Below, piece by piece: positions 5,487-55,689 of a stretch of DNA of 64,000 nucleotides. The stretch spans positions 128,001-192,000 of the forward strand of contig JBHLJY010000004.1 in NCBI GenBank assembly GCA_048887225.1, given 5' to 3'. Numbering within the stretch: position 1 is the stretch's first letter; each line of letters opens with the position of its first letter. The translations under genes were made by a program, and so were the position numbers. The DNA comes from Candidatus Hodarchaeota archaeon. GTDB lineage: Archaea > Asgardarchaeota > Lokiarchaeia > Sigyniarchaeales > SOKP01. Below the pieces are notes generated by a model. That model searched no databases, was not told the DNA's origin, and worked only from the letters and a program-made list of their open reading frames with translations.

Positions 5487-7121
5487 TTATAATCTTTTTC
5501 TTAAAGGCATTCCAGATAATGCTCTTGTAAAAACTCCTTTATTAAGCGCAAGGACACCATTTACAAAAACATACTCAATACCCTCGGAATACAACCTTGG
5601 ATTTTCGTAAGTAGCCTTATCAATTATCGTATTTTTATCAAAAATGGTGATATCTGCCCAATAACCTTCTTTAAGCAGACCTCGATCTCTTAATCCCAAT
5701 TTTTGAGCGGGATATGAGGTCATTCTTCTTATTGCATCGTGTAATGTAAGTAATTTCTCTTCTCGAACATATTTCCCTAATACTTGTGTAAAAGTACCAT
5801 TGGTATATGGATTTGGAAAATACTCAGAATCTTCTGGAAGGATCCTCCCATCTGAAGCGAACATTGTAAGCGGATGGGTAATTGTTATTATATTATCCTC
5901 TTCAGTTATCGAAAGATAAGTCCCTCCTACTGCACCTTCTTGTTCGATTAAAACATCAATTACAACCTGCCTTGGATCTATATTTTGTTCTATTGAATTT
6001 TGATAGACTGTTTTTCCATTGAATATTTTACTTTTTGGAGCATTTATGTATACTTTTTTCCAATCTTCTCTTTCTTCTATTTTCAGAAAACTCTTCACAA
6101 TTAAATCAATTTCTCCGTAAATTTTATTTTTTAGATCGCTGTCAGTTTTAGATTTCTTTAATATTTCAATTGCTCTCGGAATATCTACTTTTTCTTTAGA
6201 AAGGTAAACCCATGGTGGTGTTAATACAAATAAAAAAGTATGATTAGATGCTTGAGGAAAAACGTCAAATGTGATATCTAAATTTTCTTCACGAGCTTTC
6301 TCAACATATTTATAAGCCTTTCTTATATCTCCGCGCCAAAATCCAAATGGTTTAAAATGATTAATTTGAACAGGTATTCCTGATTTAGCGATTTTAATTG
6401 CCTCTTTAGTAGCTTTAACTAATCCAATCGCAAATCCTCGAAAATGAGTGGCATAAATTCCATCATATTTATTTACTACCTTGCAAAGTTCAATAATTTC
6501 GTCGGTTTTAGCAAAAGAACCTGGTGGATAATCTAACCCTGTAGACATACCGAAAGCACCATTTTTCATCTCTCCCTCAAGGATCTCTTTCATCTCCTCT
6601 AATTCTTCGGAAGTTGGTGCTTTATTATTCAAACCTAAAACGTTAGCCCTTATCATTGAATGACCAATTAATGGAATCACATTAATAGGTATTTTTCTTT
6701 GTTTTAACGCCTCTAAATATTCATTCAAATTTTGATAAGCAAATTCTTTTTCAAAATCTTCACTCGCACCAAGAATTGCTCCGAACATTTCAATATCATC
6801 TTTTTCAATTTTATCAGAATTTATTGGTGGTATCATAGAAAAACCACAGTTCCCTATAACGTGAGTTGTAACCCCCTGTGTTAATACATTTTCACCACGG
6901 CTTAATAGAATAGTTTGATCAGAATGAGTATGAATATCAATAAAACCAGGTGAAACTATAAGTCCTGAGGCATCAATCACATCTTCAGCGTCATCTTCTC
7001 TTATCTTCGTTTCGATATTTTGAATTTTACCATTATCAACTAACAAATCTGTTTTAAACCACGGATTACCCGTTCCATCAACAACTCTTCCATTCTTGAT
7101 TAAATAAGATTTTGGCGTAAT
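5487..7121 (-). CDS. N-acyl-D-amino-acid deacylase-like amidohydrolase (start extended to ATT)
   Basis: PGFIDIHTHSD, GNCG, GMSTGLDYPPG, ADITIFD. The open frame continues upstream of the tracked ORF as ITPKSYLIKNGRVVDGTGNPWFKTD, the conserved family N-terminus. No ATG/GTG/TTG occurs before the in-frame TAA; SD-like AAGGGGA precedes ATT. Confidence 0.85.
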   Translation of the reverse strand: MTPKSYLIKNGRVVDGTGNPWFKTDLLVDNGKIQNIETKIREDDAEDVIDASGLIVSPGFIDIHTHSDQTILLSRGENVLTQGVTTHVIGNCGFSMIPPINSDKIEKDDIEMFGAILGASEDFEKEFAYQNLNEYLEALKQRKIPINVIPLIGHSMIRANVLGLNNKAPTSEELEEMKEILEGEMKNGAFGMSTGLDYPPGSFAKTDEIIELCKVVNKYDGIYATHFRGFAIGLVKATKEAIKIAKSGIPVQINHFKPFGFWRGDIRKAYKYVEKAREENLDITFDVFPQASNHTFLFVLTPPWVYLSKEKVDIPRAIEILKKSKTDSDLKNKIYGEIDLIVKSFLKIEEREDWKKVYINAPKSKIFNGKTVYQNSIEQNIDPRQVVIDVLIEQEGAVGGTYLSITEEDNIITITHPLTMFASDGRILPEDSEYFPNPYTNGTFTQVLGKYVREEKLLTLHDAIRRMTSYPAQKLGLRDRGLLKEGYWADITIFDKNTIIDKATYENPRLYSEGIEYVFVNGVLALNKGVFTRALSGMPLRKRL

Positions 7122-7308
7122 TTTAATCCCCTTTATTAATTTTTATTTATAACTTCCTTTTTATCCATATATAAATGTTGTATTTTTAGTAAAACTGATG
7201 AATTTTTAAAATGAGATATCGAATTAAAAAACAATGAATAAAACTAAAATCAAAAAATACAACTCAATCAGAAATTAAAAAAAGAATTTCTTGCTGATTT
7301 AAAATTAT

Positions 7309-48278: not shown

Positions 48279-49259
48279 TTATTTTAGAGTTATTCTTAAC
48301 AAGTCTTTAGCTAAAATAGTGTTTGGAAATATTTTTTTTGCCTCTTCAAGTAATTTTAATGCTTCTTCTTGATATCTCGAAGAAATATGAGTTAGTATCA
48401 ATTGTTTGGCGTTCATATTTTTAGCGTCATTTGCGGCATCCACGGAAGTTGAATGTTTTCTTTCATCTGCTATATCCTTTAATTTAGAGCTAAAGGTTGC
48501 TTCGTGTATTACAATGTCAGAATTTTTTCCTAAATCGATTAATGCTTGGCATGGGCTTGTGTCTGCTGAATATATTATTTTTCGTCCAATTCTTTGAGGT
48601 CCTACGACTCTTTCTTTTACGGGATCAATGATTTTATCATTAAAATTAATAGATTCCCCTTTTTGGAGTTTTTTCCACAATCTACTTTCAGGGATTCCTA
48701 ATTCCCTGGCCCTATCAGGATTAAACTTTCCATAGCGCGGCTTTTCATTAAAAGAATAAGCGAATGTTATTACAGAATGATCAACGAGCGCATATTTTAT
48801 AAGGTATCTATTAGTTTCGTAAACAACATCTTTAATTATTTGGGTAGAATTAGTAGAATTTTCAGTATCTAATCCATTAAACTCAATTAAAGCATTATTC
48901 ACGTGATCAATTTCGATAATTTTTATAGAGTAATTTGCTTTAAGTCCGAGAATTTTTCTATGAAGAAATAAGTAAAGAAAAAGATTTTTTGGTCCAATTA
49001 TCGTGAGTGGAGCAGTTCTATCGATTAAACCAAATCTAAACAATAAACCAGGAAGTCCGATTATGTGATCTCCATGAAAATGGGATATTAAAATAATCAA
49101 TGGTTTATTGAATTTTAATCCAGCACCGTTAAAATTGCGTTGAATGTCTTCTCCACAATCGAATAAAATAATGTGGTTTCGAAATTTTAAAGCGGTTGCT
49201 GGTAAATTTCGATTCTTAACAGGAATAGCGGCAGATGAGCCAAGGATAATAAGTTCCAT
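48279..49259 (-). CDS. rnz: ribonuclease Z
   Basis: LGSSAAIP..RN, FDCGE, SHFHGDHIIGLPG, exosite GKF...A.ELGIP, YSADT, HEATF, HST, LTHISSRY. Confidence 0.96.
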   Translation of the reverse strand: MELIILGSSAAIPVKNRNLPATALKFRNHIILFDCGEDIQRNFNGAGLKFNKPLIILISHFHGDHIIGLPGLLFRFGLIDRTAPLTIIGPKNLFLYLFLHRKILGLKANYSIKIIEIDHVNNALIEFNGLDTENSTNSTQIIKDVVYETNRYLIKYALVDHSVITFAYSFNEKPRYGKFNPDRARELGIPESRLWKKLQKGESINFNDKIIDPVKERVVGPQRIGRKIIYSADTSPCQALIDLGKNSDIVIHEATFSSKLKDIADERKHSTSVDAANDAKNMNAKQLILTHISSRYQEEALKLLEEAKKIFPNTILAKDLLRITLK

Positions 49260-49268
49260 TGATTTTCA

Positions 49269-50354
49269 TTAAGCTATTTTTTTTCTTAACTGAGAGATCT
49301 CTAATCTCTGTTGTTCGTTTTGTTTTTCTAAATCTTCTACTAAATTTTTAAGTTCTCTCACTCTCAAAGCTAAGTTAATGTCATCTTCGGCAACTATTTG
49401 AACTTGACTGATACCACTCTCTATTTCTCCTTTCACTTGTGCCTTCTCGGTGTTATATTCTTTAAGCTGTTCTTGAAGATTTTGAATTTGTTTTTTTGCA
49501 GTGTTCAATTTACGCTGTAATTCCTCTGATAATGCCTTAAAAGTATCTTCAGAAGATTTAATCTCTTCTCTTGGGGGTATTCTTTCTTTAGTAGCTTCTA
49601 AAATAGAAGTAGATTTTTTTAAATCTTGAATTTCGAGATTCTTATTGTTTAATTCTACTCTCAAATCGTCAATCTTTTTCTGTAAGTGGGCGGTCGAACG
49701 TTCACCTTTTTTCTTACCTTCCTTGGTTTGGTACTTATCACCTATACTTTTTAACTTTTTTACTTTCTTCTCACTCGTGGAGCTTTTTAATTTTTTTTGA
49801 AGTCTTTTTATCTCTTTTGACAAATCTTCGTTTTTAATTCTTGCATTTGACTTAGTATGTTCTAATTCTTTTCTTAAATCAGCGATTTTTGAATTTAACT
49901 CATTAATTTCTTCCTTTTTGCTTTCTTCTTTTAGCTTATCTATTAAATTTTGTTGTTTGTTAATTTTTAACGTTAATTCCTTTACTAAAGCCTCTAGTGG
50001 TTCTTTTTTCTCCTCAATTCTTATTACTGTACTTTCATTATTTTTTTTCGTATGTTTTTCAAGTTCTTGTTGAAATTGTATCTTTTCTTTTCTTAAAAAA
50101 CCCATTTTATCCTTTAAATCTCTAATCTGTTTTTCTTTTTCTTCGAGTTCAATAGCTAATTTAGAATCCCCTTTTACTTTTTTCCCTTTCTTTTTTGAGT
50201 CTTTTATACCACTATCTGGTATTAAGGCCTCCAATTTCATAATAGTATCTTCTAATTGCTCGATTTTTTGGAGATATCCTATAATTTCTCTGTCTTTGGA
50301 TTCCAATTGATGTTCTAATTCGCTTAATTTATCTATTAAAGCATCTTCAGTCAT
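49269..50354 (-). CDS. long coiled-coil protein
   Basis: Heptad K/E/L/I-rich along the whole length with Lys-rich linkers. Confidence 0.75.
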   Translation of the reverse strand: MTEDALIDKLSELEHQLESKDREIIGYLQKIEQLEDTIMKLEALIPDSGIKDSKKKGKKVKGDSKLAIELEEKEKQIRDLKDKMGFLRKEKIQFQQELEKHTKKNNESTVIRIEEKKEPLEALVKELTLKINKQQNLIDKLKEESKKEEINELNSKIADLRKELEHTKSNARIKNEDLSKEIKRLQKKLKSSTSEKKVKKLKSIGDKYQTKEGKKKGERSTAHLQKKIDDLRVELNNKNLEIQDLKKSTSILEATKERIPPREEIKSSEDTFKALSEELQRKLNTAKKQIQNLQEQLKEYNTEKAQVKGEIESGISQVQIVAEDDINLALRVRELKNLVEDLEKQNEQQRLEISQLRKKIA

Positions 50355-50480
50355 CTTTGAATCTCATTTTTTAATTGAATTTTTTTTTTATATTTTGCAT
50401 TTAAAACATTTTCATAATTAAATATTAAGTCTTTAATTATAAATTATCAGATCCTCCTTCTTAGTAATAGTTTTATTCTA

Positions 50481-52427
50481 TTAATATATATCGAAATCTT
50501 TGATGGAAAATTTTTCAATCTTCTTCATAATAGGGATTAAACTTAGATAATTTAAAAGAACCATTGCACTAAAAAGAATAGAAATTCCAACAAAAGGAAC
50601 ATATAACGGGGGTAAGTACGCACGATCAATTAAAAATATTGAGTTTATAATCATTCCTAATCCTAAACTTAGTAAAAGAGACGGGATAATAACAAATAAA
50701 GCTTCTAAAAATAAGACTCTCTTCAAAGATTTTTTCTTAGCACCGACAGCCCTCATTATTAAGAAGTCTTTTGCTTTTTCTAATAACCCTGCTTTTTGAT
50801 AATTATATAGTGTAAGTATGGAAATTACTCCCATAACAATTATTAAAATTATAGGGTATAATGTCAAATTTGAAAGATAAGTTAGATTTTCTTCAAAAAT
50901 AGGATCCAACAATAGACATGTAAAATCATTTCCTAATTTTCCTTCTATAATTTCTTCAAGTTCTTCTTCTATATCTTCATAGGAACCACTCTCGAGTTTC
51001 ATTAAAACGATATTAATCTCATTATTAGTAAAATTCAATTCTTCTCGAAATATATCTAAGCCTATATATCCAACATTTCCACTGTAAAAACTATCTATTA
51101 TGACGCCTGAAATGTGAAATCTATGTCCTAAATCTTTGATTCTCAAACTCTGATCAAGAGCATAATCGAAAAAATTATAGGCTAATCCATCTCCAATGGT
51201 CATATTATCATATGAGTCGTCATCATCGAAAAATCTCCCTTCAATTTCAAAATCTTGGATCTTATCGTCTGGATTTACTCCAATAATAGGATAATTTCCT
51301 TTTCTTCCTTGACCCACAGTTTGATATCCCCCTCTACCCTCCTCTTCTCCATAATAATAATGATATCCATCTAACTCTTCGACATCGCAGAATTTTATCA
51401 AGCGCGGGTCTACTTCTTCGATTTCGTCTATTGAATTAATTTCTACAATATCGCTAAGGTTAAATAAATATTTTGGTTCCATAAAATCTATATCGTCTTC
51501 ATCGACAGAAACTGAAGGATCTGAAAACATTTTATACATATCCGCGTAAGAATCAACAGCTTCTTCGTGGCCTATTACGACAATATTGTCCTCTTGAGAT
51601 TTTTTTATCCACTCTTGTGAAGAAGTATTTAACACAATAGTTCCCAATCCCAATGTAAAAATAATAAGGAAGATAAAGGAAAAGATAAATAGAAATCTAA
51701 AAAATTCACCTTTTCTTCTGATTGTATTTATAATCGCAATTTTTAAATTAAAACCTAAATTCGAAAGCCATCTTGGAATCAATATTAATTTTTTTGAAGC
51801 GTCATAATTGTAGGGGATCTCTTTTGAAAATGTTTTTGTAATTTTCTGGTTTCCTATTTTTCTTAGGGCAAAACCAGATATAAAAAAAATGCCAAGTAAA
51901 CATGAAAAAAACAAAATTAATGTATAAAACAAATCAATATAAAACAGAATTTTTAATCCTACCAAGAGCATAACAAGAGCAAATATACCGTACGCAACCA
52001 AACCAAGAATTAATCCTAGTACAAATCCCAACAAGTAAATGATATACGCTTCGAGAAGATAAAAACTATATAATCTATTAGGCAGCGTTCCTAATGCTTT
52101 CATTATAGCAATATCTCTTTTTTTACTAATAATTAAAGAAGTAGTGATTGCTACGACAACTATGAAAGCAAGAAAAAGAACTAATACTAGAATTAATGTA
52201 TTAAACTGAGAATAGATTGAATTAATAGCTCCCGAAAAATAAAGATCATTACTATTTAAATCGTCTTCGATTGTAGTAAAACTTTGGATAATCAGGTTTA
52301 AGCCTAATGAAGATGAAAAATAAATCATAAATATTGCCAAAGAAATTACCAAAGCTATTGTTAAAACATATGGATATGTTTGAGATTTCTTTCTCATAAA
52401 ATCCTTTATTGCGAAATCTAAAGACAT
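50481..52427 (-). CDS. FtsX/MacB-like ABC permease (two permease repeats)
   Basis: KKRDIAIMKALG and KDFLIMRAVGA...LFLEA repeats; large extracytoplasmic loop. Confidence 0.88.
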   Translation of the reverse strand: MSLDFAIKDFMRKKSQTYPYVLTIALVISLAIFMIYFSSSLGLNLIIQSFTTIEDDLNSNDLYFSGAINSIYSQFNTLILVLVLFLAFIVVVAITTSLIISKKRDIAIMKALGTLPNRLYSFYLLEAYIIYLLGFVLGLILGLVAYGIFALVMLLVGLKILFYIDLFYTLILFFSCLLGIFFISGFALRKIGNQKITKTFSKEIPYNYDASKKLILIPRWLSNLGFNLKIAIINTIRRKGEFFRFLFIFSFIFLIIFTLGLGTIVLNTSSQEWIKKSQEDNIVVIGHEEAVDSYADMYKMFSDPSVSVDEDDIDFMEPKYLFNLSDIVEINSIDEIEEVDPRLIKFCDVEELDGYHYYYGEEEGRGGYQTVGQGRKGNYPIIGVNPDDKIQDFEIEGRFFDDDDSYDNMTIGDGLAYNFFDYALDQSLRIKDLGHRFHISGVIIDSFYSGNVGYIGLDIFREELNFTNNEINIVLMKLESGSYEDIEEELEEIIEGKLGNDFTCLLLDPIFEENLTYLSNLTLYPIILIIVMGVISILTLYNYQKAGLLEKAKDFLIMRAVGAKKKSLKRVLFLEALFVIIPSLLLSLGLGMIINSIFLIDRAYLPPLYVPFVGISILFSAMVLLNYLSLIPIMKKIEKFSIKDFDIY

Positions 52428-52448
52428 ATCTATTTTACCTCACACAAT

Positions 52449-53234
52449 TTACCTATTAATTGTAGAATTCACTTCTTTTATTATCCTTCCATCATCAAAA
52501 GTAATAACCCGATCTGCTAAATCAATTAATTTATCATCATGAGTAGCCAGAATTATTGTTTTTCTGAGATCTTTAAGATCTTTAAATAAATCTCTTATGA
52601 ATTCGCTCGTTTTTTTATCTAAATTTGCTGTGATTTCATCTCCAAATATTACAGGTGGATCATTAGCTAATGCCCGTGCAATTGCTACACGTTGTTGTTC
52701 TCCAGCTGAAAGTTGAAAGGGTAAATGTTCTCTTCGCTCATCTAAACTAACTTTCTTTAATAAATTTACGGCTCGTTTTCTTGCCTCTTTAAATGGTACT
52801 CCTGCAGTCCTTAAAATAAAAAGTATGTTTTCTTCTGCCGTCAAAGTCGAGATGAGATTATAATTTTGAAAAATAAATCCTGAATTGATTAATCTAAAAG
52901 TTGCTAGTGCTTCTTCTTCCAAATTACTAATTTTGATCCCATGAGCATATATAATTCCTTTGTTTGGAGAATCTAATCCACTAAGTAAATTTAATAGCGT
53001 GGTTTTTCCGGCTCCAGAAGGTCCTTTTATTACAACAAATTCTCCTTCCTCAATCTTTAAAGATACACCATCAACAGCTCTAACAATAAAATCTCCTATC
53101 TCGTAATCTTTAACCAAGTTTTCAGCAAAAATTATTACATTATCTTTTAATATCTCTATGATTTTATCTGCTTCAATATCTTCTTCTATTGATTCGTCAT
53201 CTTCAGTCTTCTTCAGCGAATCTTTCTTAGACAC
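52449..53234 (-). CDS. LolD/MacB-like ABC ATPase
   Basis: GPSGAGKTT, GFIFQNYNLI, LSAGEQQRVAIARAL, DEITANLD, ATHD. Confidence 0.93.
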   Translation of the reverse strand: MSKKDSLKKTEDDESIEEDIEADKIIEILKDNVIIFAENLVKDYEIGDFIVRAVDGVSLKIEEGEFVVIKGPSGAGKTTLLNLLSGLDSPNKGIIYAHGIKISNLEEEALATFRLINSGFIFQNYNLISTLTAEENILFILRTAGVPFKEARKRAVNLLKKVSLDERREHLPFQLSAGEQQRVAIARALANDPPVIFGDEITANLDKKTSEFIRDLFKDLKDLRKTIILATHDDKLIDLADRVITFDDGRIIKEVNSTINR

Positions 53235-53368
53235 AATTTATACAATTTTTTTAAGATTTTATCTCTTATGCATTTTTTAAGAGGTTTTAAATTCGGTTTT
53301 TTAAGGTTAGAATTATTGCTTTATGTAATAATTGCTTTATTAAAGAAAGATAAAATTTCAACGTTCGA

Positions 53369-53385
53369 GAAAATAGATTTAAATA
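53369..53385 (+). promoter_or_regulatory. BRE/TATA promoter of the candidate ncRNA
   Basis: GAAAATAGA-TTTAAATA ends 24 nt before the first base of the closing stem (53410). Confidence 0.5.
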
Positions 53386-53409
53386 TCATCTTGTTTTAAT
53401 AATTTATTA

Positions 53410-53538
53410 GAGGGAATTCGTGAGACGAGCAAAATATAATATCCCCTAATTTCCTAATATTTTAAATGGTAACTAAATTTTATCCCAAATCTAAAGCCAC
53501 AATTGTTAGTTTTAGATTAAGCTTCTCCCGGATCCCTC
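53410..53538 (+). ncRNA. candidate structured small RNA (closing stem + three hairpins)
   Basis: GAGGGAATTCGTGAGACGAGC (53410-30) pairs with GCTTCTCCCGGATCCCTC (53521-38). Internal hairpins: AAAATAT/ATATTTT, TGG..TAA/TTA..CCA, AATCTAAAGC/GTTTTAGATT. G-U pairs are valid only on the + strand. GC-rich ends in an AT-rich spacer. Confidence 0.55.
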
Positions 53539-53544
53539 AATCTC

Positions 53545-53551
53545 TTTTTTT
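53545..53551 (+). terminator. oligo-T tract after the candidate ncRNA
   Basis: T7 run 6 nt after the closing stem. Confidence 0.4.
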
Positions 53552-53709
53552 CAAAAGCTACAAAATAAAAAATATATCAAGTTACACTTAGAGGCACTAT
53601 ATTTTACGTGATTTATAAATTATAAAAGTCTTTTTAAGCTTGTTTTATAGTAATTTTCCAATTAGCGATTATTTTCACTAAATTATAAGAATAACATTTT
53701 TCTTTTAGA

Positions 53710-53723
53710 GAAAAGATTTATAT
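53710..53723 (+). promoter_or_regulatory. BRE/TATA promoter of the tusA-dsrE-iscS-iscU cluster
   Basis: GAAAAGATTTATAT, canonical archaeal arrangement. Confidence 0.55.
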
Positions 53724-53800
53724 CACAATATTAAATTTAATAAAAGATATCCTTTCTAATTAACGAAATCATTAAGATTTCTTATTAATAGAAAAAGAGG

Positions 53801-54498: not shown

Positions 54499-55689
54499 AT
54501 GAGCATCTATTTAGATTATCAGGCTGCGAAACCCATAGATGATAGAGTTTTATCAGAGATGTTACCGTATTTTAAACAAAAATTCGCAAATCCTTCTTCT
54601 TTACACAATGATGGTGATATTGCAACCGATATTTTAGATATATCACGTAAAAAGGTTGCTAAATTTATTAATGCACCGAACGCATCTGATATCATTTTTA
54701 CTGCGAGTGCCACAGAATCAAATAATCTAGCTCTTATCGGTGCTTCAATGAATCGGAAAAACAAAGGAAATCATATCATTATTTCTGAAACTGAGCATAT
54801 TTCAATATTGAACTTAGCAAAATATTTAGAAAGACAAGGATTTGAAATTAGTAGAGTTCCTGTGGATCAATATGGAATCATAAGACTTGATAAATTAGAA
54901 CGCTTAATTAAAGATAAAACCATTTTAATATCAATCGCTTCGGCTAGCAACGAAGTAGGTTCTCTTCAACCATTAAAAGAAATAAGTGAAATCGCTTCTG
55001 ATAAAAAAATTTTATTTCATACTGACGCCGTAGCTAGCGAATCTACTATTCCGATTGATGTTCAGAGGATTCCAATTGATTTAATTACATTATCTTCAAA
55101 TGACATTTACGGCCCTAGAGGTGTAGGTGCCCTATACTTGAAAAAAGGAGTTCGAGTAAATCCAGTAATAATAGGTGGAGGTCAAGAAAGGGGTATTAGA
55201 TCAGGTTCTGAAAATATACCAGGAATAGTAGGTTTTGCTAAAGCAGCTGAGATTATGATGGAGGAAATGGAGATTGAGGCAGAACGCCTTAAAAAATTGA
55301 GAGACAAAATTATAAAAGAAATATTAGAAACGATTCCAAAATCTTATTTAAATGGACATCCCGAAAAAAGACTTCCAAATAACGTACATTTTAGATTTGA
55401 TTATATTGAGGGAGAGTCCTTAATACTCGGTTTAAAAGACGAAAATATTGCGGCTGCGACAGGTTCTGCGTGTACTTCAAAAACATTAGAACCTTCTCAC
55501 ACATTAATAGCAATGGGTTTGTTGCATAAAGAAGCTCACGGAAGTTTATTACTTTCATTGGGACGATTCACAAAAAACTCAGATGTCAATAAAGTCATAG
55601 AAGTTTTACCTGGAGTTGTCAAAAGATTAAGGATTATATCACCACTAACACCTCCTGATTTATTAGAACAATATAATGAGGTGAAATAA
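54499..55689 (+). CDS. iscS: cysteine desulfurase, class I
   Basis: IYLDYQA, FANPSS.H, TASATESNN, EH.S, HTDAV, GGGQERG.RSGSEN, ATGSACTS. The usual SxHK PLP-lysine motif reads SSNDIYGPRG. Confidence 0.9.
   Translation: MSIYLDYQAAKPIDDRVLSEMLPYFKQKFANPSSLHNDGDIATDILDISRKKVAKFINAPNASDIIFTASATESNNLALIGASMNRKNKGNHIIISETEHISILNLAKYLERQGFEISRVPVDQYGIIRLDKLERLIKDKTILISIASASNEVGSLQPLKEISEIASDKKILFHTDAVASESTIPIDVQRIPIDLITLSSNDIYGPRGVGALYLKKGVRVNPVIIGGGQERGIRSGSENIPGIVGFAKAAEIMMEEMEIEAERLKKLRDKIIKEILETIPKSYLNGHPEKRLPNNVHFRFDYIEGESLILGLKDENIAAATGSACTSKTLEPSHTLIAMGLLHKEAHGSLLLSLGRFTKNSDVNKVIEVLPGVVKRLRIISPLTPPDLLEQYNEVK

Follow-up and report, generated by a model that had tools for sequence, protein, structure and literature searches.

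Y RNAs combine a stem that closes the ends of the molecule with a pyrimidine-rich central loop and a 3' U-tail, and are part of the Ro60 RNP. In the protein-sponge RNAs CsrB, RsmY and RsmZ, short GGA words can come and go, and the helices that separate them vary. RNAs of the RsaE/RoxS type in Firmicutes are encoded by independent genes, are about 100-150 nt long and carry several clade-conserved unpaired UCCC-type words (PMC8334554), of which two UCCCC motifs in RsaE act on ribosome-binding sites (PMC8334554). Archaeal sRNAs likewise mask ribosome-binding sites, and sRNA41 and sRNA154 of Methanosarcina mazei are intergenic RNAs with shown targets, whose pyrimidine-rich motifs are exposed in hairpin loops (PMC5867862). 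The Lokiarchaeial element analyzed here shares with RsaE/RoxS the size range, the independent gene and the conserved unpaired words; with sRNA41 and sRNA154 the archaeal intergenic position and the exposed pyrimidine-rich segments; with Y RNAs the closing stem, pyrimidine-rich centre and 3' U-tail; with the CsrB group short gainable and losable words separated by variable helices; and with 5S rRNA its approximate size and paired ends. Nevertheless, it differs from each of them. It shows no sequence or covariance-model similarity to RsaE/RoxS, has its ends paired in a long helix and leaves the usual GAGGUG site of the host unmatched, and the search for a conserved ribosome-binding-site target found none. 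No homology to the Methanosarcina RNAs was found, and its motifs lie in an open multiloop. Unlike in Y RNAs, the stem is not conserved in sequence, no Rfam match was obtained and no TROVE/Ro60 gene was found in the host, while the words, only two to four modules, are C/U-rich rather than GGA. It also lacks the helices and loop C/E of 5S rRNA, which the host encodes as a separate, permuted gene.

The element lies in a 566-nt intergenic gap (53235-53800 of the window, i.e. of the whole 64,000-nt stretch analyzed) flanked by tusA and by a LolD/MacB-like ABC ATPase gene that is transcribed divergently. A prior sequence-only reading had drawn attention to this gap, to a TATA box ending 24 nt before the first pair, to a T7 tract and to a second TATA before the tusA cluster; all are present, the last at about 53717. 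The features are as follows:

52449-53234, - strand: LolD/MacB-like ABC ATPase gene, the usual divergent neighbour (56/66 loci); context, outside the RNA
53371-53385, + strand: BRE-like purine run and TATA box (TTTAAATA, TATA at 53378-53385), from TATA position across homologues
53408-53551, + strand: predicted ncRNA of about 140 nt, from z-scores of the strands and the covariance-model family; ends inferred rather than mapped
53410-53430, + strand: 5' arm of closing helix P1, from two-sided changes and the cognate-arm duplex test
53438-53449, + strand: module A, core AUAUCC, usually AUAUCCCCUAA, unpaired, from conservation and unpaired probability
53449-53458, + strand: module B, AUUUCCUAAU; UUCCUR in 76/78 homologues
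53464-53473, + strand: module C, AAAUGGUAAC, containing AUG; AUGGUA in 71/78 homologues
53474-53487, + strand: module D, variable and U-rich, repeating UAUCCC in some lineages; exact host form in 20/78 homologues
53488-53518, + strand: optional 3' hairpin with a 10-bp stem of variable sequence; a hairpin here in 60/71 homologues
53521-53538, + strand: 3' arm of P1, from the fold, two-sided changes and the duplex test
53541-53551, + strand: pyrimidine/U-tract, probable terminator, from the T-run at the 3' end of homologues

The host TATA box ends 24 nt 5' of the first paired base, and its placement is fixed across the family: of 78 homologues, 73 have it beginning 28-31 nt, and 74 within 24-34 nt, 5' of the RNA start, versus 29 of 296 control windows (10%) with a TATA at the compared position. 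At the other end, the T7 tract (53545-53551) lies 6 nt past the last pair in the host, and a run of at least four T is seen at the 3' end of 84 of 90 homologues, which is consistent with the U-tract termination reported with Lokiarchaeal aCPSF1 (PMC8716108). We infer a transcript that begins at about 53408 and runs as far as the U-tract.

The host element folds on the + strand with -29.5 kcal/mol (z = -2.9), none of 200 shuffles being as good, against z = +0.06 for the - strand; likewise, 27 of 33 homologues fold better on the + strand (mean z -4.3 versus -2.4). The closing helix P1 comprises 13-26 predicted base pairs across homologues while its sequence changes, tolerates G-U pairs, and keeps or improves its pairing in strain variants seen at 53528, 53531 and 53532. 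Its outer pairs show two-sided changes in 6/6 cases, exceeding every shuffle and every slid register, in an alignment that was fitted to the model and is biased towards structure. An independent test, in which cognate P1 arms from one member of each of 11 genera were compared with permuted pairs (-21.1 versus -13.3 kcal/mol; 0/20000 permutations as good), agrees with this. The four-way junction proposed in the earlier reading fared less well. Its paired blocks and 10-bp hairpin are present in the host, but the junction is not conserved: hairpin 1 can be formed in only 2 of 71 homologues and hairpin 2 in 32 of 71, the latter read by eye and without compensatory change. Even in the host the junction is the minimum-energy fold only, with an ensemble frequency of 1%, and the centroid already lacks hairpin 2. 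The predicted conserved design is instead a covarying end-closing helix that displays unpaired modules, with optional hairpins inserted between them.

Invariance is confined to these short modules, all helices being variable. Module A (AUAUCCC) is conserved at 98-100% per position in 90 distinct homologues, a figure partly set by the search pattern; it is predicted to be unpaired in most of them, with probabilities mostly of 0.7-1.0. The conserved word of module B, AUUUCCUAAUU, occurs almost everywhere and is absent from one subclade (G005/G006/G009). The search patterns included both A and B, so that their percentages are partly built in; both are also kept in homologues found by synteny or model (G013, G018, G024 and G058). 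Module C (usually AUGGUAA) and module D have been lost in genera g4, g5, g9 and g10, and modules have also been duplicated, with an extra A in G018, an extra D in G008 and an extra C-like word in G022. Of 29 distinct inserts, 10-45 nt long and placed between modules, 27 fold into hairpins (19/20 in the A-B interval, 8/9 in the B-C interval), which suggests selection on RNA rather than on DNA, and a spacing of modules that is free in sequence while the modules themselves stay close. A small ORF beginning at the AUG of module C was rejected, as the frames are 2-55 codons long and the reading frame is not kept. Certain resemblances are noted here, though not as evidence: A and B are reminiscent of the 5' splice site and branch site of the U12 type, A-B-C of a reversed origin-recognition box (the combined pattern is absent from the genome), and the CCCUAA within module A of telomerase templates, a reading we rejected since inserts and substitutions break a template.

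Across the host's Lokiarchaeia family, covariance models recover the RNA in 11 of 13 genera and in about 117 of the 131 genomes, essentially as a single copy, including the MAGs Loki_b31, Loki_b32, bin108, bin132 and AMARA_5S; the host genome (98% complete) has one copy, and BLAST of relatives gave clear homologues. A first model matched 113 of the 131 genomes, one match (G156) looking like chance, and a second, trained on distant members, added five (G012, G013, G015, G017 and G068). When all GTDB species were scanned for the exact motif, 61 loci were obtained, each labelled as Asgard or as an uncultured archaeon and the majority as Promethearchaeota. The core pattern is matched by 62 metagenome stretches, of which three are chance matches and most show the same neighbouring genes, and none of the viral contigs carries the RNA. 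The RNA was found in none of the five genomes of genus g8, three of which are 94-100% complete, suggesting that it was lost there, and it was not found in one g13 genome (78% complete). The sister families, two closed genomes included, and the rest of the phylum sample yielded no convincing homologue. Weak model matches outside the family were judged to be chance, either lying within reading frames (G030, G037 and G040) or lacking modules or closing helix by eye (G034, G185, G172, G283 and G288).

A few other loci deserve mention. In one g8 genome (G016) the ABC ATPase gene directly adjoins the corrinoid-protein gene, and the RNA is missing between the two. An intergenic sister-family stretch (G039:C546:1549-1677) has A- and B-like words and no good closing helix, and could be a distant homologue, a chance match or part of a mis-binned contig. 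In a long gap of G017 (C10:88830-88918), paired purine/pyrimidine ends, AUAUCC and a U-tract point to a possible second, shorter RNA.

The usual position of the RNA is between an ABC ATPase gene and a corrinoid-protein gene; in 50 of 66 loci the latter follows the RNA in the same orientation, at a distance of about 110-200 nt. This arrangement is not fixed: at least five genomes and one metagenome contig carry the RNA in the opposite orientation with respect to its flanks, G015 has it relocated to another locus, and in the host genus it precedes tusA/dsrE or other, unrelated genes. The inversions, the relocation and the differing neighbours indicate that the RNA is an independent unit, and exclude a leader or riboswitch of a neighbour as its general function. 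In G018 (L202:1021-1353) two diverged tandem copies, one with module A duplicated, lie between the ABC ATPase and corrinoid genes. The gene neighbourhood has further peculiarities. Beside the RNA gene, 48279-53234 (-) of the window encodes a conserved run of the ABC ATPase, an FtsX-like permease, a 361-aa coiled-coil protein without a Pfam match and RNase Z, and both G127 and G136 have an RNase Z-like gene immediately before the RNA, in the same orientation. On the other side, 54499-55689 (+) encodes an IscS-like protein with SSNDIYGPRG, which has Asp where the pyridoxal-phosphate lysine is expected.

Even with E values of up to 10 allowed, searches with Rfam 15 in the window and 14 homologous loci left the core without an overlapping match, and the literature searched held no description of the RNA, nor of any lineage-specific structured small RNA of Lokiarchaeia; the RNA is thus a new family, without an Rfam entry or a description in that literature. 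A 5S rRNA scoring over the Rfam cut-off was found in 0 of 24 family genomes versus 9 of 11 in the sister family, and the RNA was therefore tested as a diverged 5S rRNA (RF00001). This identity was rejected: there is no match here, the 5S helices and loop C/E motifs are missing, and the host 5S lies elsewhere as a circularly permuted gene (contig C5:13255-13430). Permuted 5S genes occur in the host and its family, including g8, the usual 3' and 5' ends being joined by a short loop with a break point that varies by lineage. A link of the RNA to this permutation was rejected as well, because g8 has permuted 5S without the RNA. The SRP RNA (RF01857) and RNase P RNA (RF00373) are encoded elsewhere, on C14 and C25. 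ARAGORN detected no tRNA or tmRNA in the window, and a relaxed tRNA scan gave only noise; no C/D or H/ACA boxes were seen among the conserved columns, nor any significant rRNA complement of the kind expected of a guide. A Y RNA was dismissed, as no Ro60/TROVE partner gene (PF05731) was found in the 98% complete host genome, and a MITE is contradicted by the one host copy, the syntenic single copies across genera and the termini, which vary most.

The TATA at a fixed distance, the U-tract and the covarying structure together argue that this is a real gene for a stand-alone archaeal ncRNA. The sequence-only reading had proposed just such an unannotated Asgard RNA with its own promoter and terminator, and TATA spacing, closing-helix covariation and neighbour-independent orientation support this. 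On the points it had named for checking, the analysis gave a + strand z of -2.9 with 0/200 shuffles as good, homologues across 11 genera of one Lokiarchaeia family, covarying outer closing-helix pairs (6/6 two-sided) and no overlapping match to a known Rfam family.

Invariance of the modules implies either that the partner is invariant too or that partners are numerous. An invariant partner is what would be called for if the RNA, in the manner of U3 snoRNA, used several contacts of 6-8 bp to guide a stable RNA such as pre-rRNA or a 5S precursor, or to chaperone its folding; short matches in the 16S 5' domain (GGGAUA near 196 and 510, UAGGAA near 590) and the unusual permuted 5S of the family point the same way. 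We nevertheless consider this explanation, the third in order, quite unlikely, given that the search of 16S, 23S, 5S, SRP RNA, RNase P RNA and tRNA brought up no partner with conserved base pairing. The best duplexes with the family 16S, 23S, 5S precursor and RNase P RNA were no better than those of shuffled motifs (for 16S, 23S and 5S, 7-64% of shuffles were as good), and the single nominal match, to SRP RNA (2%), lacks conservation in four other genera. A guide for the 23S peptidyl-transferase region was rejected because the necessary GUUACC and GGGAUA are absent from the family 23S examined, as was a mimic or partner of 16S helix 9, with which the RNA has AAAUGGU and a U-run in common, no covariation with module D being seen by eye. 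The permuted 5S of g8, which occurs without the RNA, also speaks against such a role. In passing, the 16S rRNA gene of one Lokiarchaeia bin (G011:C106) is of bacterial type, suggesting contamination. The two readings that place the function at the locus itself are highly improbable. A cis-acting leader, attenuator or riboswitch of the downstream corrinoid-protein gene would account for its same-strand position in 50/66 loci, but is largely refuted by the inverted copies, as well as by the unrelated genes in the host genus, the relocation in G015 and the lack of a cobalamin-riboswitch match. A DNA-level element without RNA function, be it a protein-binding site or a domesticated MITE, would explain the complementary ends, but has an equally slight probability in view of the single host copy, the preference for the + strand (27/33), the tolerated G-U pairs, the fixed TATA distance and the hairpin-forming inserts.

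A possible though somewhat unlikely reading is a trans-acting sRNA comparable to M. mazei sRNA41 or RsaE/RoxS. Its unpaired UCCC/UCCU words would seed on the G-rich ribosome-binding sites of several mRNAs and block their translation, the targets being lineage-specific. Up to three predicted unpaired C-rich words (A, B and D) would be available for this purpose, and RsaE and the archaeal sRNAs furnish precedents at ribosome-binding sites (PMC8334554, PMC5867862). Strong duplexes of A+B with start regions number 31 versus a shuffle mean of about 15, with one of 12 shuffles higher, so that the count is within range; GGGAU stands before a deacylase-like gene in 4 of 5 orthologues and before the corrinoid gene in 12 of 90 start regions. 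On the other hand, modules A and B poorly match GAGGUG, the usual ribosome-binding site of the host genome, and start codons show no enrichment of exact complements of the loop motifs (AGGGGAU occurs in 4 start regions, shuffled words in 4.1). Two top mRNA predictions are not conserved (purQ 2/30, pfkB 3/22), 24 neighbouring gene groups revealed no conserved complementary site, the corrinoid gene and iscS were rejected as targets for the same reason, and genomes without the RNA contain as many complementary words as those with it. The antisense site that had been suggested at the deacylase-like gene does exist as AGGGGAU (7132, - strand), where it precedes a non-canonical AUU in the host, but a target role is not upheld, as only 4 of the 36 family genomes searched were found to have the gene, whereas the RNA is near-universal; an antisense role in general is possible. 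Since the mRNA target screen covered one whole genome and a few orthologue sets, we place the RsaE/RoxS-like blocker a close second to the scaffold. Two further observations concern these genes. In one g2 subclade the corrinoid ribosome-binding region is UUAGGGAUA, nearly complementary to module A, a form absent in other genera, and the amidohydrolase/deacylase-like gene (5487-7142, - strand of the window) has AUU where its closest relative has a UUG start, which may be a non-canonical start or a start mutation.

The reading that we tentatively place first is that of a stable, stand-alone small RNA acting as a protein-binding scaffold or decoy, which best accounts for the closed ends, the free helices and the gain, loss or duplication of modules. 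The closing helix would protect the ends of the RNA and hold the modules open, an RNA-binding protein would read these as single strands, and the RNA would then either titrate the bound protein or organize a small RNP. We presume that a KH-domain protein or an Sm-like ring would suit such C/U-rich words. The loss and duplication of modules may be likened to repeated binding words. The case is built on the architecture and on the negative target searches, and against it stand the failure to find Ro60/TROVE in the host and the fact that g8 seems to live without the RNA; multi-target sRNAs such as RsaE, moreover, also keep invariant C-rich words (PMC8334554). A more specific proposal, which we hold to be unlikely, is that the RNA, as a scaffold with closed ends, forms the core of a housekeeping RNP of Lokiarchaeia, its invariant single-stranded modules being loaded with a dedicated protein, for instance an Sm-like ring or a KH protein. 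If true, Asgard archaea would possess a type of stable small RNP that has yet to be described in them.

As a single-copy RNA with invariant motifs in 11 genera, it offers a bait for Asgard RNA-binding partners or regulatory targets, and g8, seemingly without the RNA, provides a natural comparison for a partner lost along with it. The family thereby bears on the origin of eukaryotic small RNPs and of post-transcriptional control.
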